The notes under the pieces were generated by a model. It was not told the origin of the DNA. It searched no databases and worked only from the letters and a program-made list of their open reading frames with translations. The translations under genes were made by a program, and so were the position numbers. Shown piece after piece: positions 1 through 15,146 of a stretch of DNA of 50,401 nucleotides. The stretch is from IMG/VR virus record IMGVR_UViG_3300028549_001760; one strand, 5' to 3'. Every line of letters begins with the position of its first letter. Position 1 is the first letter of the stretch. The stretch is from a virus.

Positions 1-255
1 AACAAGCGCGTATGACCTGGTGGCCAACGCGGTGACTTCCGCTCATATCGTCGACGGGGCCGTGGTGGCGTCAAAGATCTTTGTTGAAAACCTGGCCGCT
101 ATTATTGGGAATCTGTCTGCCATACAGGGCGGCGCTGATGATCCAAACAACTATTGGATGCTTACGGATTTCCCTGGCAAGCCGGTCGACCGGATGGTCG
201 GCGAGTTACGGGCTGGCGGGGCAAAGTCCTTTATCAAGGTTACTCCTGACAGCAC
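1..255. repeat. Terminal overlap copy 1: identical to 50147-50401 (circular or circularly permuted assembly; unique genome length 50146 bp)
   Basis: Read directly: aacaagcgcgtatgacctggtggccaacgcgg... restarts at 50147 and runs unchanged to the last base (50401 = base 255). Confidence 0.95.
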
Positions 256-1471
256 CCCTGGCGCCGATGATGGCGACCTGCAGGTTGAAGGGCTCGACCT
301 GATAATGAAAAACGGCAAGATCCAAACCTACAAGGGCGTTGGCGAGGCCCGGCGCAGGTTTTCCCAGGAAGATACCTCTTTAGTGTGGACCAAGATAGAT
401 GAAAACGGTGATCCAATATTTGATATTGCCAGAATCGACCTTGATCCGGACGACTCTGTAAAGTTTACAAATATTTACTCAATCAATGCGGTGTCTCCTG
501 AATTGACAGAGCTTGAGGTTGTTACAAATTGCCCAGGGGACACAGCGATTTGCCAATATGATGGGAAGATATATATCCCTCACATGCTGGACACTGTTAT
601 GCTGGTTAATGTTTTGGATCCAGCTAATAACTCATATAGCAGCATAAGCTTGGGTGCTGGCGTTAGTGACACAACTAGAGCGGCAATTATAGTAGATGGC
701 ATTTTATACATGGCGCACGACGCGAACCGCGTGTACTGGCAAGACCTTACCACCGTCAACACACACGGTAATGTGTTTTACACAGGAGCAGGCGGAGGTG
801 AAGTGCTAAAAGGCCAAATACCATGCTTAAATGGTCAATTATATTTATATAACGCATGGGGGTATCATGTCTTTGATATTGCTACCAAGGCTTTTGTTGG
901 GCACGTTGCGCGTGCTTCGACAAAAATACTTGCTGCCGCTGATGAAGCATCTGGCTCTGTTTTTGATGTGGGGTATGATTCTAGTGGCGATTACTGGTTT
1001 TATTACGGTAGTGGTGGCATTGGGTTTCCTATGGACCCTGATAACGGTTATGCAAGGCTTACTATAACCATCGCTGGCTCGTGTGGGATTGTTGTCTCTG
1101 ATGGTATTGTCACTATTTTTTCTGGTGGCACTGGGGCGAATGATTATATCGCCCGCTGGGACATCCTTAATGAAGAATGGTTGCCGTTTTCTCACAATAC
1201 CATTAAGGTGGCTTGCGCTGGCCTCCTTGGTCTTTACGGCGGCAAGTATTTCTTTGAGGGGCTTGATGACGATGGCCGGCACGGTATTTATTCTTTCAGC
1301 CCGCTGCTTGATTTGTTTGAATACTACGGCGAAAAACCGAATGGCCTGACCAGCGCTCTTTCCTGTTTTGCGAATGGGTGGTTGTATTCAGAGGACTCTG
1401 ATGGTACAATAAATAGCACAGAGATTATGAGGAAGTATCCAGTGGGCGGCAATGCGCGTTACGCCCCGTAA
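1..1471 (+). CDS. Tail fibre / receptor-binding protein, C-terminal part of the gene that starts at 47193 (wraps through the window junction)
   Basis: No stop from base 2 to TAA 1469-1471. GTG at 20 equals base 50166, which is 991 codons after ATG 47193, so the two parts are in frame. The joined gene is 4425 nt (1474 aa). Repeated strands DGKIYIPH, DGILYMAH, NGQLYLYN, GGKYFFEG, NGWLYSED suggest a Kelch/beta-propeller-like distal domain. Confidence 0.75.
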   Translation, partial: TSAYDLVANAVTSAHIVDGAVVASKIFVENLAAIIGNLSAIQGGADDPNNYWMLTDFPGKPVDRMVGELRAGGAKSFIKVTPDSTPGADDGDLQVEGLDLIMKNGKIQTYKGVGEARRRFSQEDTSLVWTKIDENGDPIFDIARIDLDPDDSVKFTNIYSINAVSPELTELEVVTNCPGDTAICQYDGKIYIPHMLDTVMLVNVLDPANNSYSSISLGAGVSDTTRAAIIVDGILYMAHDANRVYWQDLTTVNTHGNVFYTGAGGGEVLKGQIPCLNGQLYLYNAWGYHVFDIATKAFVGHVARASTKILAAADEASGSVFDVGYDSSGDYWFYYGSGGIGFPMDPDNGYARLTITIAGSCGIVVSDGIVTIFSGGTGANDYIARWDILNEEWLPFSHNTIKVACAGLLGLYGGKYFFEGLDDDGRHGIYSFSPLLDLFEYYGEKPNGLTSALSCFANGWLYSEDSDGTINSTEIMRKYPVGGNARYAP

Positions 1472-1488
1472 ACACGAAAGGGAATAAT

Positions 1489-1761
1489 ATGAGAAAGATC
1501 GTAGGCACCTGCACCAAAGAAGAACTTGATAGCTTTAACCTGATCAGAACGAAAGTAGAGACGGCCAACCAGGCTCTTGCCATGAAGGTCGAGGATCCAA
1601 GCCAGCAAGATCAGTTTGTCAAAACAGTCCTGGATGTCCTGGCCGAATACAAGTGGCTAGAGCGCGACTGGTGGAACGACAAGATGAAACGGTTTGGAAT
1701 AACCAACGGGAAAGATCTTCATATCGACTTTTTCACTGGAGACTTATTCCTGAATGAGTAA
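1489..1761 (+). CDS. Hypothetical 90-aa protein, first gene of the CXXX-repeat/rSAM cassette (possible accessory or chaperone)
   Basis: ORF track. AAAGGGA lies upstream of the ATG. Third codon positions are G/C-rich like neighbouring genes. The stop overlaps the next start by 8 nt (ATGAGTAA, 1754-1761). No family recognised. Confidence 0.55.
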   Translation: MRKIVGTCTKEELDSFNLIRTKVETANQALAMKVEDPSQQDQFVKTVLDVLAEYKWLERDWWNDKMKRFGITNGKDLHIDFFTGDLFLNE

Positions 1762-3055
1762 TGAAAAGACCTACACGCAAATGTACCCATTAGTGGGGAA
1801 AGACATCCGTATTGTCGACGTCAACGAGACGATGGCCGAAGCCAATGTGCAGCGGGCTGTCATCGGAGCTGCGGCGAAAACATGGACTAGCACCCCGCAG
1901 TCTGGCGGCGAGATCCGCGTTTCTCACATGGAGGATTTGCGTTTAGCGGTCACTAACTTAGTTCGTACAGTCAGCTTTTCTGACCCGACGCTAAGTGCTT
2001 ATGGAAATGTTAGGGCTCTTCACATGGAAGAGGTCCGACAGATAATTGACGACCGCAGGAATAACGCCGCGTGTGTGAATTGTTCATCCTCATGCGCCAG
2101 GGCGTGTAGCTCTGCTTGTTATTCCGGATGCGAAGTTGATTGCTCGGCCGATTGTATGGACTGTTGTACGGGGGCTTGCGATACGGCTTGTATCGAAGAA
2201 TGTTCGTCAAATTGCCTTGGCGACTGCACGAGCGTTTGTCGAAATGGTTGCGCGAATGCTTGCAAAACCACTTGTACGGCGGCGTGTTCTGGCGATTGTA
2301 ATGTGGTTTGTTACACAAGCTGCAGCGCAACTTGCTCGACTGTTTGTACTGGCGGCGGCTGTCAGGGCACTTGTTCTGGCACTTGCAGTTATGCTTGTGA
2401 TACTATTTGCATGGCAAGTTGTCAGTTGGGGTGCGGCGGCTATTGTACGACGAATTGTTATACCTCCTGCAATGGGTGCCGAGCCGCTTGTAAAATGGGC
2501 TGTGGATTTGCTTGTATTGGCGTATGTGATACTTCCTGCGCCGGATATTGTTATACAACCTGCTCAACTGGTTGTGCCACTTACTGTACTAGAGTATGTA
2601 CTGGCTCTTGTGGCGAAGCCTGCAATTCCGGTTGTTCACCTAGCTGCACAACCCATTGCTATACTGGATGCAGCGTAACGTGCTACATGAGCTGCAATTC
2701 AAATTGCTATACAGCCTGCACAACTGGTTGCGTCCAAACCTGCGCCGTTAATTGCTCTACTACCTGCACAAATGCTTGCTATGCGAATTGTAGCGGCACC
2801 TGCAATGTCGGCGACTGCAGTTCATCGTGCGATTATTCTTGTGACTTAAATTGTTATTACAATTGTGACTCGACTTGCGATACGCAATGCTACGCTTCTT
2901 GCAGCAATAACTGTTATGGCTCATGCTCGGCGGCCTGCAGCACTAATTGTTCAACTGGGTGCATAGACAGCTGCCGCGCCACCTGTAACCAGTCTTGTTA
3001 TTCTGGTTGCGCTAATTCAAACCGCCACATGGCAGACCAAGGATCTTATGCTTGA
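1754..3055 (+). CDS. Giant CXXX-repeat cysteine-rich protein (433 aa), presumed substrate of the adjacent radical SAM enzyme
   Basis: Residues 1-106 have no Cys. Residues 107-419 carry about 80 consecutive X-X-X-C units by hand count (CSSSCARACSSACYSGCEVDC...NQSCYSGC), followed by a 14-aa Cys-free tail. The gene has 8-nt overlaps with both neighbours. Confidence 0.8.
   Translation: MSNEKTYTQMYPLVGKDIRIVDVNETMAEANVQRAVIGAAAKTWTSTPQSGGEIRVSHMEDLRLAVTNLVRTVSFSDPTLSAYGNVRALHMEEVRQIIDDRRNNAACVNCSSSCARACSSACYSGCEVDCSADCMDCCTGACDTACIEECSSNCLGDCTSVCRNGCANACKTTCTAACSGDCNVVCYTSCSATCSTVCTGGGCQGTCSGTCSYACDTICMASCQLGCGGYCTTNCYTSCNGCRAACKMGCGFACIGVCDTSCAGYCYTTCSTGCATYCTRVCTGSCGEACNSGCSPSCTTHCYTGCSVTCYMSCNSNCYTACTTGCVQTCAVNCSTTCTNACYANCSGTCNVGDCSSSCDYSCDLNCYYNCDSTCDTQCYASCSNNCYGSCSAACSTNCSTGCIDSCRATCNQSCYSGCANSNRHMADQGSYA
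2072..3010 (+). repeat. Coding array of about 80 four-codon units, each ending in TGY (Cys)
   Basis: A TGC/TGT codon recurs every 12 nt with only four register breaks (MDCC, TGGGC, NGC, NVGDC). Spacer codons are diverse, so the period is at protein level rather than a DNA tandem repeat. Confidence 0.85.
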
Positions 3056-4199
3056 TAATATACCGAACTTCCAGGGCTTGAATGTCACGTTCAATACAGG
3101 CGAGGACTGCAATCTCGCCTGTAAGTATTGCTACGAGGTTGATAAACGCAAGTCAGTCTTGTCCCTGGATTATGCAAAAAAGTTTGTTGATATCCTGCTC
3201 GATGATCCAGACCCCATTGGTGTTATGGGGACCGACAACGAGTGGATGCTTAACAGCGGTCTGATTCTGGATTTTATCGGCGGCGATGCGCTAATGCACC
3301 CGGAGCTTGTTGATTCGATCCTTCGGTATTTCGTGCAGAAGGCTGTCATCAAAAAGCACCGCTGGGCGTTCAACTGGCGCGGATCCATTTCCACCAACGG
3401 CACTCTGTTTGAGAATCCGGAAGTACGCAAGTTTATTGAGCGGTGGCACCGGAATCTTTCTATCGGCGTTAGCGTTGACGGATCTCCGGCGCTGCATGAC
3501 TCTAACCGTATCTACCCTGATGGCCGGGGGAGCATGGCTAAGATCAGAGAATGGTGGGACTGGTATCGAAATTTCTATCCTGATGGCAGCACGAAGTCTA
3601 CCCTGTCAGAGGCATCGATCCCCTATATCTATGAATCCCTAGTGTTCATGCGTGAAGAAATGGACATCAAGTACGTCAATCAAAACTTCATCTTCGAGAA
3701 CATGGAGCTTGACCAGGCAGATCTGGACCTGCTCGATGAACAGATGGCGCTCGGAGTGGCCTATGTAAAGGCCCACCCTGATATGTACTGGGGTATGATC
3801 GACAAGCGGTTTGCTGACGCCGTTCCGTACCCGGAGAATGTTGCGGCCAATCCCTGTAAATCCTGGTGCGGATCTGGATCCATGCCGGCTCTTTCTCCAG
3901 ATGGCAAGATCTATCCGTGCTTCCGGTTCCTCCCGCACACCCAGGCGCAGCACGTTGATATGTCGGTCGGCGATATCTGGACCGGATTTGAGCGCAAGGA
4001 TAATTTCGTCTGCATCCGCGGTAAGACACGCGAAGTAATCAGCCCAAAGAAATGCCGGGAATGCGATATAGAATCCGGCTGCGCATGGTGTATCGCTGGA
4101 AGCTATTCTGAAACCGGCGGGGCAACCAGGCAAACATATATCTGCGAAGTGCAGAAGATCCAGACGAAATGGGCTAAGATCTATTGGGGGGGTGTATGA
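3048..4199 (+). CDS. Radical SAM enzyme with C-terminal SPASM-type auxiliary cluster domain (peptide/protein maturase)
   Basis: CNLACKYC (CX3CX2C) at residues 21-28, with TGC at 3108-3110. IGGDALMHP is a GGE-like SAM motif. C-terminal CGSGSMPALSPDGKIYPC and CRECDIESGCAWC...C are SPASM-like. The start overlaps the CXXX gene stop (ATGCTTGA). Confidence 0.9.
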   Translation: MLDNIPNFQGLNVTFNTGEDCNLACKYCYEVDKRKSVLSLDYAKKFVDILLDDPDPIGVMGTDNEWMLNSGLILDFIGGDALMHPELVDSILRYFVQKAVIKKHRWAFNWRGSISTNGTLFENPEVRKFIERWHRNLSIGVSVDGSPALHDSNRIYPDGRGSMAKIREWWDWYRNFYPDGSTKSTLSEASIPYIYESLVFMREEMDIKYVNQNFIFENMELDQADLDLLDEQMALGVAYVKAHPDMYWGMIDKRFADAVPYPENVAANPCKSWCGSGSMPALSPDGKIYPCFRFLPHTQAQHVDMSVGDIWTGFERKDNFVCIRGKTREVISPKKCRECDIESGCAWCIAGSYSETGGATRQTYICEVQKIQTKWAKIYWGGV

Positions 4200-4417
4200 A
4201 AATAATTGGCATGGTCAACAATGATTCCCAGGCGATCGACTTCCTGCCTGGGCTTCCGCCACAGGTAGAAAACGCCTTGGACCATATCATCGAGAAGCAT
4301 GACATCGTAATTCGGGTACCTGGCACTTCTATGGAGTACGTTATCACGGCCAAGAAGCTGGCCGATGGCTCATTCCACCTTTTTTATAAAGGGACTGAAT
4401 TGACAGTGAGTGTCTGA
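4196..4417 (+). CDS. Hypothetical 73-aa protein, last coupled gene of the cassette
   Basis: ATGA overlap with the rSAM stop (4196-4199). The ORF track frame is 4184..4417; I prefer the MKIIGMV start. Third positions are G/C-rich. Confidence 0.5.
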   Translation: MKIIGMVNNDSQAIDFLPGLPPQVENALDHIIEKHDIVIRVPGTSMEYVITAKKLADGSFHLFYKGTELTVSV

Positions 4418-4444
4418 ATCGGCGATGATGCAACCGGGGGCAAT

Positions 4445-4855
4445 ATGGCAAATAAACCGACGCTACTAGACTTGATATGGGGGTTGCCGCAGCATATTGT
4501 TGCCGGCTTTTTGTTTTTGGCGCTATGTATTGGCAAGAAGATTGATTCAATCGAGCGCCTGGATAACGGGGTCTGCGTAATCCGGATCCGTTCGTTCCAT
4601 GGTGGAGTCAGCCTTGGCTGGTTTGTTTTTGTTGGTGTAATGGCTATGCCCGAAGTGATAATGCACGAGTCGGGCCACTCTTGCCAATCTATGACGCTTG
4701 GTCCGCTGTATTTAATCATCATAGGGTTGCCAAGCTTTTTATTTGCCACGATTGCTACAATACAAGGGCAAGCGGCGCGAAGATGGTACTACCGGATGTA
4801 TACCGAGGCATGGGCCGACAAACTGGGCGGCGTTACCAGGGGGATATACCTATGA
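4445..4855 (+). CDS. Small polytopic membrane protein with HExxH motif (putative membrane zinc peptidase)
   Basis: Hydrophobic segments IVAGFLFLALCI, GWFVFVGVMAM and LYLIIIGLPSFLFATIA. HESGH lies between them. A family assignment (DUF3267-like zincin) is from memory only. Confidence 0.55.
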   Translation: MANKPTLLDLIWGLPQHIVAGFLFLALCIGKKIDSIERLDNGVCVIRIRSFHGGVSLGWFVFVGVMAMPEVIMHESGHSCQSMTLGPLYLIIIGLPSFLFATIATIQGQAARRWYYRMYTEAWADKLGGVTRGIYL

Positions 4856-5136
4856 GGGCCACATACTACCTGCTTATTTCCTTCCTGCTCCTTGCCAGGG
4901 CAATCCTTTTCTTTGTCCAGCACCACCAAATTGGCCATAGGAGAAATGATCAAACCCTTGCGGGGATCTTTGTCCTTTTCGCCCTTTCATACGCCATTTA
5001 TGCCATCCGCCCGTTAGAATACGGGCCGGATCATTTCGTCTACTGGCTTGAGATAGGTCTGGACGGGGCCATTGGCATTATCACCGCTATCGAAACGCTG
5101 AAAGCCTACTCGCAGGCAGTAAAGGGTAAGAAATAA
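4852..5136 (+). CDS. 94-aa membrane protein with three hydrophobic segments and a charged C-terminus (holin-like topology)
   Basis: ATGA overlap with the upstream stop (4852-4855), in frame with track ORF 4681..5136. The sequence is MRATYYLLISFLLLARAILFF...AVKGKK. Confidence 0.5.
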   Translation: MRATYYLLISFLLLARAILFFVQHHQIGHRRNDQTLAGIFVLFALSYAIYAIRPLEYGPDHFVYWLEIGLDGAIGIITAIETLKAYSQAVKGKK

Positions 5137-6047
5137 TGTCTGGAATTCCTCTTTGGGAACAAGCCCTTACCATCCTTATGTGGATGGTTGCCGCTACGAT
5201 TGGCGGCCTGGTCCTGGTGATGCTTCTGCGTCTTATTGGGAAGAAACGGTCGGTGACGATCCCTACACCAGCTGGTCCACTTGAGATTGGCAGCGAGGTT
5301 GGCGGCGTTGAGGTTGAAGCGGCCACCCAACAAAACGGGGTTGTGCCGGCGATCCCCCCTTCCGGCAAACAGGGGAATCCTCATATCACCTGCCCTAATC
5401 TCAAGGATGTCATCATCGTTTTCAGGAACCGTGATGACCTTAAGGATCATATAGCCAGGATCAAAGAAGAGTCACGCGCGAAAGTGACAAGGATCGAAAC
5501 GCACGAGCTCCCGAAGGAAATCATGCAGAGCGCCGAGGATACTATCGCCAGGGTAATCGGCATGATGGAATCCGGATACCTTACTTTGCTTAAAGAGCAG
5601 GGAATTGCTAAGAGTGAGGTGGCGGCCACCGAGCAATTCAAATTGTATCGGATAATCGTCAAGGCGATTCAGCCGCACCTTATTCTTGAGTCGCGGCGCA
5701 TGATGAAGGAAAATGGCTGGATCAAGAAAGAAACAGACGGGACATTCAACACCTATGTGTCGCGGAAAACGGAAGATTTTCTTTCGACCGTGACTGACCT
5801 CTTGAATGACTATTATGTTATCGAGGCGCCGACCAGGTCAGAGCTTTACAGCTTCATGATGACCAAGGTAAGGCAGCCAAACGGTATCCTTGAAACCGTA
5901 GCTGAAACCATCCGGGGGTTCTTGGTCATCGCCAAGAACTGGCGCAAAGAGATTGAAAAAATCAACACCGAAACCGATGAACAAGTCGAGATCCTGCAGC
6001 GCCGCATGGAAAAAGAAATGTCAGAGATCCTGGGCGGGGAGTGCTAA
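5136..6047 (+). CDS. 303-aa protein with an N-terminal transmembrane anchor, function unknown
   Basis: ORF track. TAATG overlap with the upstream stop. The TM segment is ILMWMVAATIGGLVLVMLLRLI; the remainder is helical-looking and charged. Confidence 0.6.
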   Translation: MSGIPLWEQALTILMWMVAATIGGLVLVMLLRLIGKKRSVTIPTPAGPLEIGSEVGGVEVEAATQQNGVVPAIPPSGKQGNPHITCPNLKDVIIVFRNRDDLKDHIARIKEESRAKVTRIETHELPKEIMQSAEDTIARVIGMMESGYLTLLKEQGIAKSEVAATEQFKLYRIIVKAIQPHLILESRRMMKENGWIKKETDGTFNTYVSRKTEDFLSTVTDLLNDYYVIEAPTRSELYSFMMTKVRQPNGILETVAETIRGFLVIAKNWRKEIEKINTETDEQVEILQRRMEKEMSEILGGEC

Positions 6048-6206
6048 GTGGATACGGACGAAGCGATCTTGTTCGGCCGCCACTTGGAGAATACAGTGCC
6101 GGCCGCCGCCAGGACCGAACTGATGATGGTCATTGTCGCGCTGTACCAAGAGGTAGAGCGCCTGAAAGGGGAAACCGATGGGATCTCAATTTTGGGATGT
6201 GCCTAA
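6048..6206 (+). CDS. Small 52-aa ORF (GTG start), below the ORF-track size cut-off
   Basis: GTG follows immediately after TAA 6045-6047. About 71% G/C at third positions by hand count, like real genes here. It overlaps the next gene by 29 nt. Confidence 0.4.
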   Translation: MDTDEAILFGRHLENTVPAAARTELMMVIVALYQEVERLKGETDGISILGCA

Positions 6207-6792
6207 TAGCGGGAATGTAGACCAGGACAACAACTCGGTCGAGCGCTTGCTTGGGCTGCTGATTTCGACCTATAGCAAGGGCAAAGACAAGCGCACGATT
6301 TACCGTGAGACTTGCGGCCCTTCTTCTTTCGAGGCTTGCCTTGAGTCTCATGGCATTGACCAGAAAAGCAAGTGTGGGCTGCTCCAGCCGAGCGATTTCT
6401 ACACCATGCTCATGAACGATCGGCGCTACATCAACAATCCAGCCTGGGACCAGCCGGTGAACCGTTTCATCGAAGCCTACCCACTCCTGGCCCGCCTTTT
6501 GTACCCGGAAGCCATAGAGTGCAAGGTTGAGTGGTACCCGAAGGTCGGTGACCTGGCCGCCATAGTCCGCGAGGTTTTGCTGCGGCCGAAAACGAACTGC
6601 ATACTTAATTTGAAGGTGCCTGGGCACTACATCGCGGCGTTCCATATCAGCGACACGGACATCGTTTACTATAACGATTCTTGGAAGGCTGATACCTGGA
6701 ATCCGTCGCCGAATCACAAGCGATCGATCCCCCTCGCGGACCTTGTTAAAAATATCAAGGTTGGCCTGGTGTCGATCAGAAAGTTGGGATGA
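6178..6792 (+). CDS. Papain-fold cysteine peptidase-like protein (C39-like): candidate processing peptidase or cell-wall peptidase
   Basis: RETCGPSSFEACLESHG resembles the Cys motif of C39-like peptidases. A later PGHYIAAFH and YYNDSW supply candidate His and Asp/Asn. AGGGGA lies upstream of the ATG. Confidence 0.5.
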   Translation: MGSQFWDVPNSGNVDQDNNSVERLLGLLISTYSKGKDKRTIYRETCGPSSFEACLESHGIDQKSKCGLLQPSDFYTMLMNDRRYINNPAWDQPVNRFIEAYPLLARLLYPEAIECKVEWYPKVGDLAAIVREVLLRPKTNCILNLKVPGHYIAAFHISDTDIVYYNDSWKADTWNPSPNHKRSIPLADLVKNIKVGLVSIRKLG

Positions 6793-7055
6793 TGACTGGC
6801 AAGAAAATCGGTAAATCGGTCATGTGGGTGGTCGGGTTTCTGGCGTTCCTCGGAGTCGTGCTATTGTGTATATTCAGGGGAGCGTCCGACAACGTGACCA
6901 TGTACGCTATGGGCGCTCTGGTGGTCCACTTTGGCATTGGGATGGGCGTTGACCTTGGCGCCAAGATCCAGCGGTCAATCTGGTACCGTCGTGAGCTTGA
7001 TTCAAACGCTCGACCGAATAATGTGGAAAATTTTCCACAAGGGACATCAAGCTGA
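6789..7055 (+). CDS. 88-aa two-TM membrane protein with a charged tail (holin-like)
   Basis: ATGA overlap at 6789-6792. TM segments VMWVVGFLAFLGVVLLCIF and AMGALVVHFGIGMGV. The C-terminal VENFPQG is encoded by palindrome copy 1. Confidence 0.5.
   Translation: MMTGKKIGKSVMWVVGFLAFLGVVLLCIFRGASDNVTMYAMGALVVHFGIGMGVDLGAKIQRSIWYRRELDSNARPNNVENFPQGTSS
7022..7039. promoter_or_regulatory. 18-bp palindrome TGTGGAAAATTTTCCACA, copy 1 of 10
   Basis: Perfect palindrome. It lies inside the 3' end of 6789..7055 and at the opening of the frame that leads to 7193..7531. Confidence 0.8.
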
Positions 7056-7192
7056 ACAGTGAAAGCGGATTCCTTGAGTCGTTAATTTTCGCACTCAACA
7101 AGCGGGGGTGCGATGTAACGGCCGAGGATCTGCGTCAGCGGGTTTGTGAGGATGATCCCTGCACCCGGTATTACATAGAGAAAAATCCTACC

Positions 7193-7531
7193 ATGTACCG
7201 GGCAGGGACTTCTATTTTCGATTGTCCGAACGTACTACTTGTCTGCGTGAACAGGCTACTGGGGATGCGCCATTGCGCGATGCAGTCTTTTGTCCTGGTT
7301 CAGGACTTCAAAAAGATTCTTGAGAAAGGGATGATCCTGGCGTTTGTCTCTTGGGATAAAGAACCAGCGCATGGGGTGTGTATCCATGCCGTATCGAAAA
7401 ACGAAAAGGGCTTATTGCAGGTAGAGGTGTATGATCCGCTCTATGGCGACAAGATCGTTACCTCTGATGATGTTCGATACAAGTTTAAGCCCGGGCAGAC
7501 ATATCGAAAGGTCGTTTATGTGGTGTCGTAG
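7193..7531 (+). CDS. Hypothetical protein with a second Cys...His...Asp pattern; the true N-terminus may lie upstream
   Basis: ORF track (112 aa): IFDCPNVLL, AHGVCIHAV, VYDPLYG. The same frame is open and coding-like back to 7022 but has no ATG/GTG/TTG (see finding). Confidence 0.5.
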   Translation: MYRAGTSIFDCPNVLLVCVNRLLGMRHCAMQSFVLVQDFKKILEKGMILAFVSWDKEPAHGVCIHAVSKNEKGLLQVEVYDPLYGDKIVTSDDVRYKFKPGQTYRKVVYVVS

Positions 7532-7988
7532 ATGCGTAGCTTTTTTATTGGTCTTGGTGTTGGGATCCTCATTACTGCACTCGGCTTCGCCATCTGGTGT
7601 TTGGCTCCCGGCGGAAAAATACGCGGAACTTTTGAGGCTTTACGCCGAGCTCAAGAATCTGAACTTGAGCTTGCAAGAAACCTTGGACGAGTCAACCGCT
7701 TATACAGCGACCTTGTTGACCGACATCGAGAGAATATCGAGCGAATTGGTGAGCTTCAAAGAGAGGTATCAATCCTTGATTCAACAGCACGAAGCCTTGC
7801 AGCTACTCTTAGCCGAGGCCGAGTCACAGCTAGCGAGTCTGCGGCAGCAATTGAAAGATTTGGAGATATCCTTCGCGGCCTCGATAGTGGAAGCCAGGAC
7901 AGAAGCGCTCCCGTTGATTATCTCCCTTGGAGCCCTGTCAGTGATAGAGTTCGTGGCTATACTGATCCTGATAAGCCCAAAGCAATAG
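7518..7988 (+). CDS. 156-aa protein: N-terminal signal/TM, Leu/Glu/Gln coiled coil, C-terminal TM (last gene of the plus block)
   Basis: In frame with track ORF 7431..7988. GAAAGG lies 6 nt before ATG 7518. G/C at third positions is about 62%, against about 38% for the competing frame 7532..7993 (hand counts). The frame choice is uncertain. Confidence 0.45.
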   Translation: MWCRRCVAFLLVLVLGSSLLHSASPSGVWLPAEKYAELLRLYAELKNLNLSLQETLDESTAYTATLLTDIERISSELVSFKERYQSLIQQHEALQLLLAEAESQLASLRQQLKDLEISFAASIVEARTEALPLIISLGALSVIEFVAILILISPKQ

Positions 7989-7993
7989 AATAA

Positions 7994-8020
7994 AACAGGG
8001 CAGCATTACGCCGCCCTGTT
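7994..8020. terminator. Hairpin between the convergent gene blocks (putative bidirectional intrinsic terminator)
   Basis: aaCAGGGCAGC-attac-GCCGCCCTGtt has an 11-bp stem with one mismatch. T-rich sequence follows on both strands (tttgtc / ttattctat). Confidence 0.6.
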
Positions 8021-8022
8021 TG

Positions 8023-8268
8023 TCATAGATAGGTTTTGACTCTAGGCATTAGCGCTTTGCTTCTGCCCTTTTTCCCTTCCGGCTCTTCCTTTACCCTATC
8101 ACCCACAATAAACGTGTATTGCCTGGCCTTAAAAGTATCCAGCTGCTCAAGGTTAGCCGATGACCTGGCCATGCGGATTGTGGTGTAACTTAGCCCCAAG
8201 GTTTCGGCCGCTTCCTTGAGGGTGGAGAATTCCATCCTTTTGCCGTCCTTTATTACGATCGTTTTCAA
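8023..8268 (-). CDS. Small DNA-binding protein, NUMOD1-like helix-turn-helix (81 aa)
   Basis: TTG start 6 nt after GGAGGA, overlapping the upstream TGA. KDGKRMEFSTLKEAAETLGLSYTTIRMA matches the F-x-S-x-x-EAA-x-x-LG-x-S-x-x-x-I pattern of nuclease-associated DNA-binding modules. Confidence 0.5.
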   Translation of the reverse strand: MKTIVIKDGKRMEFSTLKEAAETLGLSYTTIRMARSSANLEQLDTFKARQYTFIVGDRVKEEPEGKKGRSKALMPRVKTYL

Positions 8269-9011
8269 AACAATTCCTCCTGGGCCGAAGTTTTTCTTGC
8301 ACCCTTGATGGATTCGCGGACCGCTTCTTCCACTTCTGTTTCGGTGTATAGAGGCTGGCCGCTCCTGGCTACAATCCAGGTTTCGGTAAACAGGATACAC
8401 TCAACTAGCACGATCAGTAGGACGAACAGCGTATAGCGGAGCGTCTTACCGTCTTTGATCTTGAGTATCCTCGCAACGTCCTCGAAGATCCCCCCGCGTT
8501 CGACTGCAACGGTGGTGGATTCTAAGATTAGCTGCCTGGTGTTATCGATTTTGATTTGTAGCTCGTCAACCAAGGCTTGGTATTCAAGCGAAGCTGATTT
8601 CCACTCCGCTGGCAGGTCACGGATTCGTTGCTGCCAATCGTCCCGCTGGACAATATACTCCGCCATGCTTGCTTCGAGCTGTGCAGTATTATTGCTGGCC
8701 AATTCAGTCGCCAAGCCCACATCCCGGGTTGCCGACATCGAGGCCATGCCAATTGAGAGGGTCATCATGGCCAAGGCCAAGACACCCATGCTCCATTTCT
8801 TTTCAGAAATTGATTTCCGGAGGATGGAAATCTTGCTGCTTTCAAAAAACAGTGCGATGCCGCGGAAAACCATTTCCTTAACCTTATCGCCTTTTACCAT
8901 TTCGACGAACATATCCATGGTCAAGTAGAATGATATTGAGAAAGCGGCAAGACGCTGGATTTGAGCAACGATTTCAGTCTGCTGGATCCAACGCTTTATT
9001 TTCTCGAACAT
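8265..9011 (-). CDS. 248-aa membrane protein with a central coiled coil, function unknown
   Basis: ORF track. AAGGAG lies 8 nt upstream. There are several hydrophobic segments (LAAFSISFYL, GVLALAMMTLSIGMA, LFVLLIVLVECILF). Confidence 0.6.
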   Translation of the reverse strand: MFEKIKRWIQQTEIVAQIQRLAAFSISFYLTMDMFVEMVKGDKVKEMVFRGIALFFESSKISILRKSISEKKWSMGVLALAMMTLSIGMASMSATRDVGLATELASNNTAQLEASMAEYIVQRDDWQQRIRDLPAEWKSASLEYQALVDELQIKIDNTRQLILESTTVAVERGGIFEDVARILKIKDGKTLRYTLFVLLIVLVECILFTETWIVARSGQPLYTETEVEEAVRESIKGARKTSAQEELF

Positions 9012-9357
9012 CGCTAAGGCTCCTTACTGTGACGACAATCATGTCCTCGTCACCGTCTTTGTCATACCTTGAATAGGTCCCTGAATGATTCAGGTTGTCG
9101 TTCTCGATGATGCCAGCCTCCTGCAGGGCATCGAAAATTGGTTTGAATGGGCCGTCCGTGTCCATCGCCTTTGCCACCAGCATGACAATATCGATATGGA
9201 CCTTGCCTTTAACGGGCTCCAGCTGCTTTTTAAACATGACCGCCAGCGACCGCATGAATTGCCGGTACACTGGCGTCTTGTAAATTATCGCAATCTTCTT
9301 CCGCTTCCCGTTAGGCTTGACGACCCAAGTGTAGGTCACGCCGTGCCATTTGTTCAC
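8974..9357 (-). CDS. rusA: RusA-family Holliday junction resolvase
   Basis: 127 aa with a GTG start. DTDGPFKPIFDALQEAGIIENDNL matches the RusA acidic catalytic core pattern. Confidence 0.7.
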   Translation of the reverse strand: MNKWHGVTYTWVVKPNGKRKKIAIIYKTPVYRQFMRSLAVMFKKQLEPVKGKVHIDIVMLVAKAMDTDGPFKPIFDALQEAGIIENDNLNHSGTYSRYDKDGDEDMIVVTVRSLSDVRENKALDPAD

Positions 9358-9389
9358 GGATACGGCGTGACCTTTCCAGATTGCTGTGT

Positions 9390-9929
9390 TCAGAACGGTA
9401 TATCGTCGTCAGAAGGGTTCCAACCGCCGGCTGCTGGGGCCTGGGGTTGGGCAGGTTGACGATTTGGTGGCTGCCACTCTTTAGGTCCGGCAGCCGGGGC
9501 TTGCTGCTGCTGCGGCCATTGCTGCTGGGCTTGCTGCGGCGGCTGCTGGTGGGCCGACTGCTGCGGTTGCTGGAAGTTCTGCTGCTGGTACTGCGGGGCA
9601 GCGTCCGGGGCTGGAGCGATCTGCTGCAAGTCGAATACGTTGATCGACAGCGCGCGCTTTTCAACGCCAGCCTGGTCGGTCCAGACATCCTCGTTCAGCT
9701 CTCCGGAAACCGACACCATGGCACCCTTGCGGTACCCGCCGGAATTGGCAAAGCTGACATCGTTACCACGGAAAGAGGTGGCCTTGAACCAAATGGTGTT
9801 CTTTTTGTCGCCGAAGCCGCGGCCACAAGCCACCGCCAGGGAAACAAGCGACTTGGTCCCGTCGCCATAAGCCTTGGTTTCAGCATCACGGCCCAACCGG
9901 CCAGTAATGGTTATCGTTCTGGTATCCAT
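9390..9929 (-). CDS. ssb: Single-stranded DNA-binding protein with a Gln/Pro-rich linker and an acidic tip
   Basis: OB-fold N-terminus (ITITGRLGRDAE...WFKATSFRG). The linker is QYQQQNFQQPQQ... and the C-terminus is DDDIPF. AAGGAG lies upstream. Confidence 0.9.
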   Translation of the reverse strand: MDTRTITITGRLGRDAETKAYGDGTKSLVSLAVACGRGFGDKKNTIWFKATSFRGNDVSFANSGGYRKGAMVSVSGELNEDVWTDQAGVEKRALSINVFDLQQIAPAPDAAPQYQQQNFQQPQQSAHQQPPQQAQQQWPQQQQAPAAGPKEWQPPNRQPAQPQAPAAGGWNPSDDDIPF

Positions 9930-9938
9930 CGTGTCTCC

Positions 9939-10667
9939 TTACGCGAGAATGGTCATCTGCGGAAGCTGCTTTTGCAGCATTTCCTTGATCTTATTCATGG
10001 CAAGATTCTGCCAAGATCCGCCGTCAGCCTCGAACAGGGCGAAGCTTGCCTTGTTGTCCTCATTCCTCATGCGGAGCAGGAAGGGGGAACATACCTGGTC
10101 AAGCTCGGGGAAGGTACGATACGGACGCAGGTACACCACGGCTGGAGCGGTTTCCTTGGCTTTTACCGTGCCGGATCCGTTCTTTTTGGTTACGGTAGTC
10201 TGGCCGACGCCGTCATCTTCGGTTTCGACGGTTTCGCCGACGACAACGCGGGAAGCGTAGCTGACGACCTTTTCCATGTCCTCGCCATCTTCGAAGCGGG
10301 AGCGCAGCTGGATAATGAACTGTTCGGTATCCATCCAATTGCCGAAGCGGAATTTCTCCGTCTCTACCGGGGTAGAGGTGGCAACGTACAGGCGCTCCAT
10401 GAACTTGCCCTCCTGGCGGGTAACCAGACTGACGCCCTGGAAGCTTTCGACGATGAGCATAGAATCCTGCATCTTTACTTCGTCCTTATTGGCCTTGATG
10501 TAATCCACCAGGCCGGAGAGGCTATGCAGCTTCAAGGTTGGGAAGCTGGCTTTGACGCGAACCGGGTGTAGCTCGGCCGGTGTAAACATGACGCCATCAA
10601 CTTCCTTGATGTCGCAGTTGTTAATGGCCATGCTTTCGATCTTTTCAATAAAACTCTTGTCGATCAT
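9939..10667 (-). CDS. Hypothetical 242-aa protein
   Basis: ORF track. AAGGAG lies upstream of the ATG. No motif recognised. Confidence 0.65.
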   Translation of the reverse strand: MIDKSFIEKIESMAINNCDIKEVDGVMFTPAELHPVRVKASFPTLKLHSLSGLVDYIKANKDEVKMQDSMLIVESFQGVSLVTRQEGKFMERLYVATSTPVETEKFRFGNWMDTEQFIIQLRSRFEDGEDMEKVVSYASRVVVGETVETEDDGVGQTTVTKKNGSGTVKAKETAPAVVYLRPYRTFPELDQVCSPFLLRMRNEDNKASFALFEADGGSWQNLAMNKIKEMLQKQLPQMTILA

Positions 10668-10676
10668 TGGATCTCC

Positions 10677-11021
10677 TTACGCTCTTGATTTCATCGAGAC
10701 GATGTTGCTGGACTCGTCTAAATCCAATTCTGCCTGGCGAGGATCGTCCGGGTAGGCTACCAGGTCGCCATTTTCGCGCTCCAGGTACAAGGCGCCAATG
10801 CTGGCCGGCATCGGCGGAAGCTTGGTGGTTACCTGGGCTTCGATGGATGCTGACCGGCGGGTCTTGTCCGGCTTGATTTTGATATGGATCGTAAGCTCAC
10901 GCATGGCGTCCGGCTTGACGCTTAGGTCAGCAATGTTGGCCAAGATCTTCTCAATCTCGGCGTCGAAAATGTCATGGACGGCGCCACCGTTCATGTTTCT
11001 CAAGCTCAACGACTTCTTCAT
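10677..11021 (-). CDS. Hypothetical 114-aa protein
   Basis: I moved the start to ATG 11021 (MKKSLSL), directly after AAGGAGG. The 9-codon track extension MENFPQGGF is the palindrome read as protein. Confidence 0.6.
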   Translation of the reverse strand: MKKSLSLRNMNGGAVHDIFDAEIEKILANIADLSVKPDAMRELTIHIKIKPDKTRRSASIEAQVTTKLPPMPASIGALYLERENGDLVAYPDDPRQAELDLDESSNIVSMKSRA

Positions 11022-11031
11022 AAACCCTCCT

Positions 11032-11049
11032 TGTGGAAAATTTTCCACA
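11032..11049. promoter_or_regulatory. 18-bp palindrome TGTGGAAAATTTTCCACA, copy 2
   Basis: Perfect palindrome, 20 bp with flanking T/A. On the minus strand it abuts the SD: CCACAAGGAGGGTTTATG. Confidence 0.8.
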
Positions 11050-11082
11050 ACTCATTATACCATGCAGCTGCAACAAGCGCAA

Positions 11083-11667
11083 CTATATATTGCCGGTAGC
11101 GTTCAAAGAATCTAGTATTTCGTCGTGCCCTTCCATGTAATACTGGATATAAATATAACCAACAGTCGAGGATAGTGCTGCCGCTTCTATTAGCACACAA
11201 TCAAGATCCGCTGGCATGGCTGCCTTGTCTGTCCATATAGCCAATAACTTGCGATCCTTTTGCAGCAAAGACATCATGTAGTACCGCGCGTCCGACCATA
11301 TACTTCCGCGGTTTATGTTATCAATGAAGTTACTGGCTGGCCCATAGTTATTTGTTAATAACTCTTTTAGCCGATTGTATTCTGTTACAAGACCTTCACC
11401 AAAAGCTCCGCAGTTTATATCCTTGCTGATAAGCCGGACTGAAAACAGCCCTATTTCGGGGTGGATATTTACCAGGAATATATCAAAGGCGCTTGTCGCT
11501 TGCGGTGCCTTGGTCATGATCCAGATCGTCTCGCTATTGTCTGCGAGATACATTTCCGGATCGATAGTCTGGAGTTGTTCTAGGGTCATTCCCTTTTCAA
11601 ACCCGAGGGGTCCGGCGAACACGGACATGGCCATAATGAGCATGATGAATACTAAAAGTTGTTTCAC
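11083..11667 (-). CDS. Secreted protein (N-terminal signal peptide), function unknown
   Basis: GTG start 5 nt after AAAGGAG, with a GTGA overlap with the upstream stop. The N-terminus is MKQLLVFIMLIMAMSVFAGP. Confidence 0.6.
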   Translation of the reverse strand: MKQLLVFIMLIMAMSVFAGPLGFEKGMTLEQLQTIDPEMYLADNSETIWIMTKAPQATSAFDIFLVNIHPEIGLFSVRLISKDINCGAFGEGLVTEYNRLKELLTNNYGPASNFIDNINRGSIWSDARYYMMSLLQKDRKLLAIWTDKAAMPADLDCVLIEAAALSSTVGYIYIQYYMEGHDEILDSLNATGNI

Positions 11668-12539
11668 GGTTTCTCCTTTGCCAGGATCTTTTTCCCGACA
11701 GCGGCATTGAATAATGCCGATATATCTACTTGGACTAGATCGTCGCGATTTTCTTGGTCCTCGACGTCCTGGGCGATGCGCTTATCTTTCAAGCGACTTA
11801 GGTAAACGGTACAGTTCGGCTTGTGCTTCCAGGCTCCGCAGCTTTCGCAGGGCTCGTCAGCAATTGTGGCTGGTGACATGCTCAATTTTGGGATCATGCC
11901 ATGGAATACTGCGTATCCATAGCCGGCCTTTTCTTTAACGCGTACAAAGGATTTCACTTCATCAACCGCGTCAGCGAAAAACAATTTGATACATCGCAGT
12001 ATCTCGGTAAGGCCCAGTTGGTTTGAATCGCCCTTGAGTAGCGCAGCTTCTTTGGCGCCCCATGATGGGGATACCCTCTCGCCTCTGATTTCAACAGCCT
12101 TTAGCTCGTAATACTTGACGAATGCGTCCCGTAGTAGCTTCCGTTCCTCCTTCTCCATCGTCTCGCCCTCTGGAGTGGGCATCTTTTCTTTCTTAACAAA
12201 CTCATTGTCGGATACCAGGGCGCAGTAGGTATCCTCGATGAACCGAATGTAAGCCCGAGATCCGTTCCCGCTGCTTAATACTTTCTTCTGGATTACGTTG
12301 GCGCCGGTCAGCTTGTCCATCCTATTGGCCAGTTGTCTTTTCTCTATGCCAAGGATCGGTAGCTCGGCCAGGATATGCGCGTAACATAGCCAGAACCATT
12401 CTCGTTCATCTAATATCACCTTCTGCATTTTACCTGATAGGTAAAAATCTGCAATGAATCTGATCAGCACGGCGTCGATAACATCAAGGCCCATTTCGAT
12501 TAAACGCTTCTGGCTGAACCCTTCGATGTTCCATTTCAT
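11664..12539 (-). CDS. Putative replication organiser / winged-helix DNA-binding protein (function tentative)
   Basis: 291 aa with an ATGA overlap with the helicase gene. The N-terminal third looks like a DNA-binding domain. The function is assigned mainly from its position next to the helicase. Confidence 0.4.
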   Translation of the reverse strand: MKWNIEGFSQKRLIEMGLDVIDAVLIRFIADFYLSGKMQKVILDEREWFWLCYAHILAELPILGIEKRQLANRMDKLTGANVIQKKVLSSGNGSRAYIRFIEDTYCALVSDNEFVKKEKMPTPEGETMEKEERKLLRDAFVKYYELKAVEIRGERVSPSWGAKEAALLKGDSNQLGLTEILRCIKLFFADAVDEVKSFVRVKEKAGYGYAVFHGMIPKLSMSPATIADEPCESCGAWKHKPNCTVYLSRLKDKRIAQDVEDQENRDDLVQVDISALFNAAVGKKILAKEKP

Positions 12540-14125
12540 ATAGCCGACCTCTCTTTCGCTCCTTTCAGTTCGTTGATTAGGAAAGCAGCTTGTCCTTTCA
12601 TCAAGTCGCCTGGTGAAGTGTAGCCTAGCCTGGCCAGTAGCCGTAGCTGGGCCTCTGTAGCGATACCGATCATTGGTGATACGCCACGCTTAAAGAACTC
12701 GGAAATGAGAACTGACGCCTGCGCTTTTGACAGGCTTTCAGAGTTGATACCATAGCGTTTCAGTATCTCCTTTTGCTTTTCGGTGGCGGCGCCTTCGAGC
12801 TTTCGGCCTTCATAGTGAATGTCGAACTCGCCTGACAGGTCGACGTTGATCAGCTTACCTACTTCCAGTGGATCGAATGCTGTGAAGCCCCACTGGGGAA
12901 TTGTCATGCGCCTGACTATCTCGATTGGGTTATATTCTTTTTCATGGGCCTTTTCAAGGTTCTCCATGAAATCTTCTTCTTCGGATCCCTCTGCAGTTTT
13001 TTGCGCACGCTTCTGCACATTGTCACCAAAGCCCATGGTCGAGAATAATTCATAGGCGGTGACGAGGCGCAGCTTGTCCGAGTTGTAGGTGAACTCGACA
13101 AGCAGTAGTTCTTTCTTGCCTGGGTGCAGCCTGGTGCCGCGGCCGATCGCTTGGGCGTATACTGTCCGGCTCCCGGTCGGCCGAAGCATCACAATGGCCG
13201 ATACTTTGGGCTCATCGTATCCTTCCAAGAGTACGTTGCACGAGCAAAGGTGAGTGATGATTCCCTGCTTGAATTCATACAAGGTGTGGCGTCGTAGTTC
13301 CTTGTCTGTGGCGCCAGATATATAGCCAGCCTTGACACCGAGCTTGCACAATTCTTCGGCCATGAGCTTTGACGAGTAGACGTTCGGCAGGAAGCATAAG
13401 GTTTGTTTTCCTTCGGTTTGCTTCCTGACGTTTTCAGCAATCGGGGTGATGTACTCTGCGATCGCGCCGGCCAGTTCATCGTCTTGGAAGTCTCCTGCAG
13501 TAATCTTGAGCTTGCTTAGGTTGATGGTGAAATCGTTACACCTGCGGCCGACTATCTTGACTAGGAATCCATCGTTGATAGCCTTGTGTAGCGGGTACTC
13601 GTAGGCGACTTTGGTGTAGATATTGCCAAGTTGCTTGTCGTCTGCACGGTCGGCGGTGGCCGTTATCCCTAGCAAGCTGCTCTTGTCGAAATGGTTGATG
13701 ATATTCCTGTACGTCGCACTGATCGAGTGATGTGCCTCGTCGATTATCATGTGCTGGAAAGCGTCCTTGCGGAATCGTTCGAGACGCTTGCGCTGCATGG
13801 TGGGGACGGATCCGACAACGACGTTCGCGCCGAGATCCGCCCAGTGCTGCGCCATTTCTTTGTCCGGAGCGTAGCCAGAGTGGCCGGAAAGCTTGTCAAT
13901 CGCCTGGTCTACCAATTCCTCTCGATGCGCCAGCATAAGAGTCTTTTCTTTTCTCAACAGTGTTCGGCGAACCCATTCGGCGGCGATGATAGTTTTCCCT
14001 GTCCCGGTTGCCATGATTACCAGGGGGCGTTCACCTTCTGCAATCGCCTTCTCGATCGCTTCGTTAGCCTCGGTCTGATAATACCTTAGTTCTTTCATGC
14101 GCTGGACAGGCTCGAACAGGTCCAT
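12536..14125 (-). CDS. Superfamily 2 DEAH-box DNA helicase
   Basis: Walker A is MATGTGKT, motif II is IIDEAHH, motif III is ITATADR, motif VI is QAIGRGTR. AAGGAGG lies upstream. Confidence 0.85.
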   Translation of the reverse strand: MDLFEPVQRMKELRYYQTEANEAIEKAIAEGERPLVIMATGTGKTIIAAEWVRRTLLRKEKTLMLAHREELVDQAIDKLSGHSGYAPDKEMAQHWADLGANVVVGSVPTMQRKRLERFRKDAFQHMIIDEAHHSISATYRNIINHFDKSSLLGITATADRADDKQLGNIYTKVAYEYPLHKAINDGFLVKIVGRRCNDFTINLSKLKITAGDFQDDELAGAIAEYITPIAENVRKQTEGKQTLCFLPNVYSSKLMAEELCKLGVKAGYISGATDKELRRHTLYEFKQGIITHLCSCNVLLEGYDEPKVSAIVMLRPTGSRTVYAQAIGRGTRLHPGKKELLLVEFTYNSDKLRLVTAYELFSTMGFGDNVQKRAQKTAEGSEEEDFMENLEKAHEKEYNPIEIVRRMTIPQWGFTAFDPLEVGKLINVDLSGEFDIHYEGRKLEGAATEKQKEILKRYGINSESLSKAQASVLISEFFKRGVSPMIGIATEAQLRLLARLGYTSPGDLMKGQAAFLINELKGAKERSAI

Positions 14126-14341
14126 CTAGTCCTCCTTGAGGAATCGTTTTTCGACTTCGAAGCCGTGGTAAATGGCGTCATGCCACTCAATACTATGGAG
14201 CTTGAAATTGGATTGTGACACCCAATATTTTCCGGAAGCATCCTGCACCACTTCGGCTCCTGCAGGGACGAACACGCTGGCTTCGGCCGGCGGGAGCGCT
14301 GAATAATTGCGCAGAAAGTTAAGCGGCTGGTTTGTTTTCAT
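14126..14341 (-). CDS. Hypothetical 71-aa protein
   Basis: I chose the ATG 14341 start (MKTNQPL), which gives an ATGA overlap with the upstream stop. The track ORF runs to 14377. Confidence 0.5.
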   Translation of the reverse strand: MKTNQPLNFLRNYSALPPAEASVFVPAGAEVVQDASGKYWVSQSNFKLHSIEWHDAIYHGFEVEKRFLKED

Positions 14342-14553
14342 GTTTTCTTCACATTCCACCAGCCGTAGACTTCGCACATTTCGCCGTCTGGTCCGTAAAG
14401 AGTAGTCGCCAGTTCGCCTTCGGTGAATCCTTCTGCCGTCATTTCGTTGACGCGCTCACCTGCATCGCGATCCAGTTGCTCGGCGGCGCCAGGTGGCAAC
14501 CGGCCGGGGATGTTCCAAGAGTAATTGATGGTGATCGTTTTCTTGTACGTCAT
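14338..14553 (-). CDS. Hypothetical 71-aa protein
   Basis: I chose the ATG 14553 start (MTYKKTI) after GAAAGGA. The track ORF extends to 14583, across the upstream gene end. Confidence 0.5.
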   Translation of the reverse strand: MTYKKTITINYSWNIPGRLPPGAAEQLDRDAGERVNEMTAEGFTEGELATTLYGPDGEMCEVYGWWNVKKT

Positions 14554-14564
14554 CTTGATTCCTT

Positions 14565-15134: not shown

Positions 15135-15146
15135 GGCACCTCCTGT

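Follow-up and report, generated by a model that had tools for sequence, protein, structure and literature searches.

Among radical S-adenosylmethionine (SAM) enzymes that carry a SPASM domain, QhpD installs several Cys thioethers (to Asp or Glu) in the gamma subunit of quinohemoprotein amine dehydrogenase, and the modified subunit, with only a few links, remains in a larger assembly and does not become a free peptide. PapB, a single SPASM enzyme, makes the six Cys-X3-Asp thioethers of freyrasin (a ranthipeptide) along an i to i+4 repeat and prefers Asp or Glu as acceptor, in CX3D/E motifs (PMC9413430). The thioether made by CteB, the SCIFF maturase of thermocellin, is reported to join Cys to a Thr side chain at C-gamma (PMC10177961). 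In CteB, three Cys (C344, C362 and C413) hold auxiliary cluster 1 (AC1) and four (C400, C403, C409 and C432) hold AC2, and the same coordination is predicted for PapB; selenocysteine at the cross-linking Cys position of the substrate contacts an auxiliary cluster in both PapB and Tte1186, namely AC1 in Tte1186 (PMC10177961). A further system, in which an accessory protein, a CXXX-repeat target and a radical SAM maturase are paired, is already curated, as defined in silico (TIGR04114, TIGR04117 and PF27846 for targets, TIGR04115 for the maturase, TIGR04116 for the accessory and TIGR04119 for a second SPASM maturase); a preliminary description of the DNA studied here had taken the pairing to be unrecognised. 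This DNA is the IMG/VR virus record IMGVR_UViG_3300028549_001760, a stretch of 50,401 nucleotides that we call the window, and positions 1489–4199, all on the + strand, hold genes for an accessory, a CXXX-repeat protein and a radical SAM/SPASM enzyme. On balance, we favour reading these positions as a three-gene protein-maturation cassette whose enzyme cross-links the CXXX ladder and whose product is a tail-associated protein.

The third gene (3048–4199) encodes a 383-residue, TIGR04115-like radical SAM/SPASM maturase. Its best NCBIfam hidden Markov model (HMM) is TIGR04115, "radical SAM peptide maturase, CXXX-repeat target family" (E 2.2e-81, 274.1 bits), which it matches from end to end (enzyme residues 12–374 on profile positions 3–354 of 359). 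PapB (129 bits, under that model's own cut-off of 340 bits for NF047865), QhpD (79), the SCIFF maturase (77) and CcpM (73) follow, and models of anSME score much lower, at 40–42 bits; across the whole clade of related loci described below, TIGR04115 likewise stands far ahead of the other models. This ranking agrees with the preliminary description, which had proposed an enzyme that modifies peptides or proteins and not a housekeeping radical SAM class. The Pfam models Radical_SAM and SPASM (the latter at E 5.5e-4) match slightly below threshold, and PHROG 1802 matches at E 1e-46.

All the motifs on which that description relied were found by direct reading. They are the CX3CX2C radical SAM cluster motif CNLACKYC at residues 21–28 (C21, C25 and C28; 3108–3131); IGGDALMHP at residues 77–85 (3276–3302), a GGD variant of the GGE-like SAM-binding motif that is preceded by F76; and, in the C-terminal part, CGSGSMPALSPDGKIYPC (residues 274–291) and CRECDIESGCAWC (residues 336–348) with one more Cys at 366. 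The SPASM domain (3867–4145) thus has seven Cys, C274, C291, C336, C339, C345, C348 and C366, and in an alignment of 26 homologues these and the three Cys of the radical SAM motif, ten Fe-S Cys in all, are invariant, as are G78, G79 and D80. The nearest solved structure is CteB (5wgg, E 7e-32), with which the seven SPASM Cys agree in order and spacing as far as sequence can be read; IGGDALMHP aligns with DFFGGEPMM of CteB, with a short insertion ahead of the GGD motif in this alignment. The alignment begins only at CteB residue 100. The N-terminal ~100 residues of CteB, which we take to be the site of its recognition element (RRE) for peptides that are ribosomally synthesised and then post-translationally modified (RiPPs), have no counterpart in the window enzyme, which is therefore without an N-terminal RRE domain. 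The ten invariant Cys are expected to map to the radical SAM cluster, a three-Cys AC1 and a four-Cys AC2, and the enzyme is a complete radical SAM/SPASM protein whose nearest family is that of the CXXX-repeat-target maturases.

The second gene (1754–3055) encodes the putative substrate, a protein of 433 residues with 80 Cys within residues 107–419 (the array, 2072–3010), where 73 of the 79 steps from one Cys to the next span exactly 4 residues. Ahead of the array lies a "leader" domain (residues 1–106, 1754–2071), near whose end is a junction motif, H-M-E-E-V-R-Q-I-I-D-D (residues 90–100, 2021–2053), six residues before the first array Cys; behind it stand a C-terminal cap, ANSNRHMADQGSYA, and the stop codon (3011–3055). 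Homologous CXXX proteins from 14 sources, the window included, have the leader domain in common. The junction motif, with the consensus H[LMV][EK]E[VIA]RQV[IVA][DQ]D, keeps its position in phage and Margulisbacteria homologues, which share it in the tighter form H[LM]EEVRQ[VI][IV]DD as well, and may be a recognition helix for modification, and the cap motif C.SGC[AV]NS.R.G.D is kept at the C-terminus across the phage homologues, with a close variant in Margulisbacteria. Array length in homologues ranges from 30 to 125 Cys. S, T, G, A, N and Y fill most X positions of the window array, which has no Trp. Tandem Repeats Finder detected no DNA-level repeat in the gene, and the array is therefore old and diverged, its periodicity maintained at the protein level; a recent repeat arising by DNA slippage was rejected on the same result. 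The arrays of some relatives show an 8- or 16-residue super-repeat. Profile matches of the target are faint: E 0.009 only to TIGR04117 in the window protein, which has no PHROG match, and weak matches to PF27846 (tSAM_targ_Cxxx_rpt) on homologous targets in precomputed annotation.

By eye, the leader domain reads as three repeats of ~35 residues, each resembling FTDP..G..I[KR]A.H..ELR. Exhaustive searching with HMMER gave 45 relatives, the six best of which bear Cys arrays (five of the six listed in full). Among the weaker matches, large secreted bacterial proteins end in two or three copies of the ~35-residue repeat (FTDP.L..G.T.IKA.H..ELR.A); an FG-GAP/Big_3_5 (immunoglobulin-like) protein and an M4 peptidase are examples (relatives examined: P0130, P0134, P0136, P0137, P0143, P0148 and P0150). 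The leader has no Pfam, NCBIfam or PDB match and no tblastn match in deposited phages, and protein-homologue searches with the leader or the accessory as query returned nothing or the query alone. Other targets bear extra N-terminal domains of at least 200 residues: the L103 target (5664–7979; 771 residues, 125 Cys) has ~220 additional residues there, and neither this domain nor that of L098 has a Pfam, PHROG or NCBIfam match. The 479-residue L094 target (P0125, 249–1688) has an insertion of ~200 residues inside the leader. Between the related phages L002 and L003, nucleotide identity is ~90% for the greater part of the cassette, dropping to 72–82% in some stretches, and a 174-nt patch in mid-array (L002 7681–7854) is only 48–67% identical with Cys spacing largely kept; such a hypervariable patch may reflect diversifying selection or recombination.

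The first gene (1489–1761) encodes a 90-residue accessory that resembles TIGR04116 ("CXXX repeat peptide modification system protein") over its full length (E 2.3e-4, 21.2 bits). By iterative jackhmmer searches, 20 of the 23 clade loci defined below have a related accessory gene, and the link extends to canonical loci whose proteins pass TIGR04116 (59–105 bits), which supports homology; relatives in L002, L010 and L098 score 24–28 bits. An AlphaFold2 (AF2) model built from the single sequence (mean predicted local distance difference test score, pLDDT, 82.5) has a strand, two long helices and a beta-hairpin. This single-sequence model has no PDB match better than E 1.5 and shows no PqqD/RRE (winged-helix) fold; its best viral match in BFVD, an unnamed 94-residue protein (TM-score 0.71, E 0.22), is not significant, and the sequence has no Pfam match up to E 5. 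Because the accessory co-occurs strictly with the radical SAM enzyme and the target, it may replace the missing RRE by binding the junction helix.

The three genes are interlocked, as the preliminary description had observed. The start of the CXXX gene overlaps the stop of the 90-residue gene at 1754–1761 (ATGAGTAA), the start of the radical SAM gene overlaps the CXXX stop by 8 nt at 3048–3055 (ATGCTTGA), and the radical SAM stop forms ATGA with the next start at 4196–4199; the 8-nt overlap suggests translational coupling. From these overlaps that description had drawn a four-gene unit at 1489–4417. No separate promoter or terminator delimits the cassette, which sits inside a + strand run of structural genes. 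The fourth member of the proposed unit, a 73-residue open reading frame (ORF) at 4196–4417 that overlaps the radical SAM stop, lies outside the conserved system. A jackhmmer search of all ORFs of the loci examined matched it only to itself and to the near-identical copy in L001, and it has no Pfam, NCBIfam or PHROG match. By this comparison, the conserved unit is the three genes at 1489–4199.

A protein search with the enzyme returned 460 homologues at E<=1e-10, and the best 120 clusters of these are 48–67% identical to it and nearly all unnamed. In GTDB (one genome per species), close relatives (53–54%) occur only in Candidatus Margulisbacteria/Termititenax, after which matches fall to <=33%, in Bacillota, and belong to the canonical family; the closest relative in deposited phage genomes is 32% identical. 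We examined 23 clade loci (L001–L012 and L093–L103, minus L100, the SPN3US locus). The enzyme–array pair proved to be conserved, in keeping with the earlier proposal: an ORF rich in CXXX, of 239–771 residues, lies beside the radical SAM gene in 21 of the 23, and the pairing recurs in bacterial loci. The exceptions are L006 and L097, the latter a short sequence in which the radical SAM gene begins 122 bases from the end. L006 is a contig of jumbo-phage size with a 681-residue version of the enzyme (7497–9542) and no CXXX ORF within the stretch examined; this version may be fused in the manner of the canonical TIGR04115+TIGR04119 enzymes. The preliminary description of a SPASM enzyme that acts on the adjacent CXXX array, with the pair conserved, thus appears to have been right in its core.

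The cassette is syntenic with tail genes in more than eight phage lineages. It is preceded by a tape measure and a ~1500-residue (1474-residue) protein in the window and L001; by a tape measure (TMP_2) and a 1539-residue protein in L093; by a tail tube gene (Phage_tube_2) and, later, a 1261-residue protein in L002; by Baseplate_J, wedge and Peptidase_S74 fibre genes in L095; by an 1837-residue S74 fibre gene in L098; and by a tail sheath gene and further genes in L102. The ORFs that flank L090 look tail-fibre-like by eye, and their one family match is to a PHROG of unknown function. The Candidatus Termititenax/Margulisbacteria loci L010, L011 and L012 are chromosomal and encode CXXX proteins of 661–667 residues with 112–122 Cys in an 8/16-residue super-repeat (CG..C...), two accessory paralogues each and a radical SAM enzyme 53–54% identical to that of the window; they adjoin XRE-like regulators, and L011 also adjoins purF and lepA homologues (by eye).

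We propose the following mechanism. The accessory would stand in for an RRE, bind the junction helix of the target and present the target to the enzyme, which would cleave SAM to a 5'-deoxyadenosyl radical; this radical would remove a hydrogen atom from a carbon in a residue close to each Cys, and the Cys thiolate, bound to the open iron of AC1 as in CteB, PapB and Tte1186, would capture the carbon radical as a thioether. Repeated along the array, this reaction would build up small rings as a ladder. The product is most likely to be thioether cross-links, given the seven-Cys SPASM layout, which is that of CteB and PapB, and the ranking of the HMM matches; a ladder of small thioether rings along the array is a reasonable supposition. 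The preliminary description had drawn an analogy with the Cys-X3-Asp bridges of freyrasin, which cannot be taken as literal chemistry: the array has only 18 Asp/Glu (14 Asp, 4 Glu) in 313 residues, and we rejected PapB-type Cys-Asp links on this count. The acceptor is more likely to be the backbone C-alpha (sactionine type) or a neighbouring Cys than Asp C-beta, because no residue of the array besides Cys is conserved.

Several points weigh against the proposal of a cross-linking cassette with a tail-associated product. The window enzyme does not reach the curated cut-off of TIGR04115 (274.1 against 350 bits), the accessory does not reach that of TIGR04116 (21.2 against 50 bits), and the accessory fold was modelled from a single sequence. 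No TIGR04119 gene or domain was found in the window, the sole match being the SPASM domain of the radical SAM enzyme itself, and the product may therefore differ from that of canonical systems. The array offers no conserved acceptor residue other than Cys, and an AF2 model of the whole CXXX protein from its single sequence gave low-confidence helices (pLDDT 40.7) and was uninformative. A literature search found no experimental chemistry for the TIGR04115 family or the window clade. As to the role, the slot behind the tail-fibre genes in phages also houses cargo genes unrelated to the virion, and the Margulisbacteria loci have no phage genes in the flanks examined, so a virion role is not universal. 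Because the enzyme and accessory fall below the cut-offs while bacterial loci pass them, the window system belongs to a divergent sister clade that the NCBI models miss, with TIGR04115 scores of 210–301 bits in clade members against 382–630 in canonical bacterial-type loci, and TIGR04116 scores of 21–28 bits in the clade against 59–105 in canonical proteins.

What becomes of the product is less certain than its proposed modification. The protein may stay intact, because searches with NCBIfam, Pfam and PHROG found no protease, exporter/transporter or immunity gene in the cassette, and would serve in the tail as an appendage or fibre-associated protein that is covalently stapled and proof against reduction. 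In its strongest form, in which the CXXX protein would be a tail appendage of the virion whose 80-Cys array has been turned by one radical SAM enzyme into a continuous thioether ladder, an unreducible rod, we consider this possible but doubtful. Also to be weighed is a product that is no virion part at all but phage cargo (a "moron"), set free at lysis or active within the cell. It might be a RiPP-like toxin or bacteriocin of giant size, a sponge for metals or redox equivalents, or a factor at the host surface. The position of the cassette between tail genes and lysis-like small membrane proteins is a frequent site of cargo, Margulisbacteria bear the same system on the chromosome beside an XRE-like regulator, and the canonical family counts as a RiPP-like peptide system; in the canonical locus L091, moreover, a twin-arginine-type signal and TatA-like and TatC-like neighbours (by eye) imply an exported product. 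Yet not only are protease, transporter and immunity genes missing from the cassette, but the targets are large (239–771 residues) and keep a structured N-terminal domain, and one of them is fused to a minor-tail-protein domain (P0126, 633 residues, L093 8001–9902; N-terminal domain matching PHROG "minor tail protein" at 9e-10 and "virion structural protein" at 2e-7). Tail, baseplate or fibre genes also adjoin the cassette whether the phage is siphovirus-like, myovirus-like or jumbo, a wider range than is usual for a moron, and we judge a product outside the virion to be unlikely.

The enzyme might also perform a radical SAM reaction other than thioether formation, such as conversion of Cys to formylglycine or dehydroalanine (anSME-like), epimerisation or the formation of Tyr C-C (cyclophane) links. 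SPASM enzymes catalyse all of these, anSME and cyclophane-forming families are among the weaker HMM matches, Tyr is frequent at X1 (12 of the 73 units of the window array), and a ranthionine link would have no conserved acceptor. Against this, the top-ranked families all form thioethers, with anSME at 40–42 bits and PapB at 129; the seven-Cys SPASM domain resembles that of CteB, with its three-Cys AC1, and leads one to expect an open site on the cluster; Cys is the sole invariant residue of the array; and Tyr is rare in the arrays of Margulisbacteria, L008 and the jumbo phages. We regard such other chemistry as improbable. That the array works through free thiols (metal or Fe-S binding, or disulfide zippers after release) while the radical SAM enzyme acts elsewhere is hardly credible: its Cys density does recall metal-binding proteins, other proteins have disulfide-linked helical hairpins built from CX3C pairs and AF2 drew low-confidence helices here, but in more than 25 loci, from Bacillota to jumbo phages, the radical SAM gene is linked to those for the array and the accessory, the 8-nt overlaps suggest coupled translation and no alternative conserved substrate lies nearby.

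The remainder of the window is consistent with a phage setting. The near-identical 50,287-bp metagenome contig L001 has, in order, a PhageMin_Tail tape measure (1972 residues), a 1474-residue protein, the 90-residue, CXXX, radical SAM and 73-residue genes and small ORFs, with genes for a single-stranded DNA-binding protein and a DEAD-box helicase on the opposite strand. In the window, the gene for the 1474-residue protein is split across the ends (47190–50401 joined to 1–1471) and so shows that the window is the whole, circularly permuted genome of a tailed phage of ~50 kb; its C-terminal 483 residues (20–1471, + strand), downstream of the tape measure by the gene order of L001, presumably belong to a tail tip or fibre, and the protein has no Pfam, PHROG or NCBIfam match. 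By length and gene order, not family searches, terminase, portal and head genes can probably be placed on the window map, as can the tape measure (41227–47148). The absence of an identified sheath or baseplate gene in the window suggests a siphovirus type, and the cassette belongs to an operon of structural genes that is presumably late. Megablast of window positions 1–8000 against deposited phages gave no match.

Downstream of the cassette, small membrane proteins resemble a lysis region, and the ORFs there have no Pfam, PHROG or NCBIfam match. A 204-residue ORF at 6178–6792 stands, in relative position, where the syntenic phage L093 has a Peptidase_C39_2 protein, and may be an endolysin; it has no family match, and jackhmmer failed to tie it to the L093 protein. 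A strong terminator-like hairpin at 7993–8021 (13-bp stem with T runs) ends the + strand run of structural genes and is a probable bidirectional terminator between these and the converging - strand replication genes.

Some other loci carry additional genes. In L101, a 55.8-kb contig, three confident and three faint Glyco_transf_34 matches lie 3' of the cassette (9142–17185), together with two further radical SAM genes, Peptidase_C1 and a PIG-L deacetylase; these neighbours may modify (glycosylate) the same phage protein or a different one. The cassettes of L095 (10333–11454) and L004 (6759–7712) include a second radical SAM gene that differs from the first; that of L095 scores about equally with PapB and anSME and only 63 bits with TIGR04115. 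The L091 locus (MT837480, "Bacteriophage sp." from human faeces; 2222–6270) is a canonical CXXX system on a contig that looks bacterial and not viral. Its radical SAM enzyme scores 630 bits on TIGR04115, it holds TIGR04119 (a separate gene, 235 bits) and TIGR04116 genes, and its 174-residue target opens with a twin-arginine-type signal (SRREFF), the cassette being followed by TatA-like and TatC-like genes (by eye). In L013 and L015–L019, jackhmmer matches place TIGR04119 within fused enzymes of ~720 residues.

The window clade offers substrates with 30–125 sites, a minimal system of three genes and an accessory that is not an RRE by fold search, and is thus a clean test case for processive action of a SPASM enzyme. 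If the modified protein is in the tail, phages build covalently cross-linked structural parts by radical chemistry. Disulfides cannot form in the cytoplasm; such cross-links could replace them, and one may speculate that disulfides would also be unstable in reducing, anoxic habitats. This would then be the first case in which a virus structural protein is cross-linked in the manner of RiPPs, and no other known peptide substrate of a radical SAM enzyme would come near it in size; distant equivalents would exist in SPN3US-like jumbo phages, where the idea would be directly testable. Amber mutants of SPN3US and mass spectrometry of its virions exist (PMC5105663).

These SPN3US-like phages (SPN3US, phiEaH2, CR5; ~60 records) have two adjacent radical SAM genes (PHROG 1802), one of whose products is ~26% identical to the window enzyme, with PapB as best HMM and TIGR04115 next. 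Ahead of the radical SAM/SPASM genes stand two or three Cys-rich repeat ORFs, which begin with a helix-like leader, and the whole set lies among genes for a virion structural protein, DUF4376, a tail assembly chaperone and an endolysin. Unlike the window, it has two radical SAM genes and mixed Cys spacing, with 2 or 3 residues between Cys, and no TIGR04116-like accessory was detected in these loci. The Cys-rich ORFs (SPN3US, NC_027402 at about 142.4–144.2 kb, locus L100, 2097–2489 and 2500–2904; phiEaH2, L092, 2084–3128) hold 20–21 Cys as CXXC/CXXXC and stand upstream of a 295-residue ORF and the two radical SAM genes, in the tail-fibre region; RefSeq lacks an annotation for the first ORF of SPN3US and gives the second other ends. 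Neither the SPN3US paper nor a 2026 review of jumbo phages discusses these radical SAM and Cys-rich genes, and literature on CXXX repeats, phage SPASM enzymes and phage RiPPs or thioethers yielded nothing relevant.

Set against the characterised enzymes, the window system shares the seven-Cys SPASM layout with CteB, has PapB and QhpD as its second- and third-best families and differs from each. The Asp/Glu acceptors that PapB wants are nearly absent from the window array, PapB makes 6 links against up to ~80 in the window system, and the radical SAM Cys motif starts at residue 119 in PapB but at residue 21 here; the context of QhpD is a periplasmic enzyme, that of the window system a phage. 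The closest likeness is to the curated CXXX system, with which the window has in common the best HMM from end to end, a TIGR04116-like accessory, Cys at every fourth residue of the target, three adjacent genes and an enzyme without RRE. It differs in that its enzyme and accessory fall below the cut-offs, with identity to bacterial members of <=33%, in the absence of TIGR04119 and in being phage-borne beside tail genes; its target, with 433 residues, 80 Cys and a structured leader of ~106 residues, and those of the clade at large (239–771 residues), compare with ~50–90 residues in most of the bacterial loci examined. What is new is therefore the variant: phage-borne, minimal, with very large targets that carry a structured leader, and present in the tail modules of many phage types.

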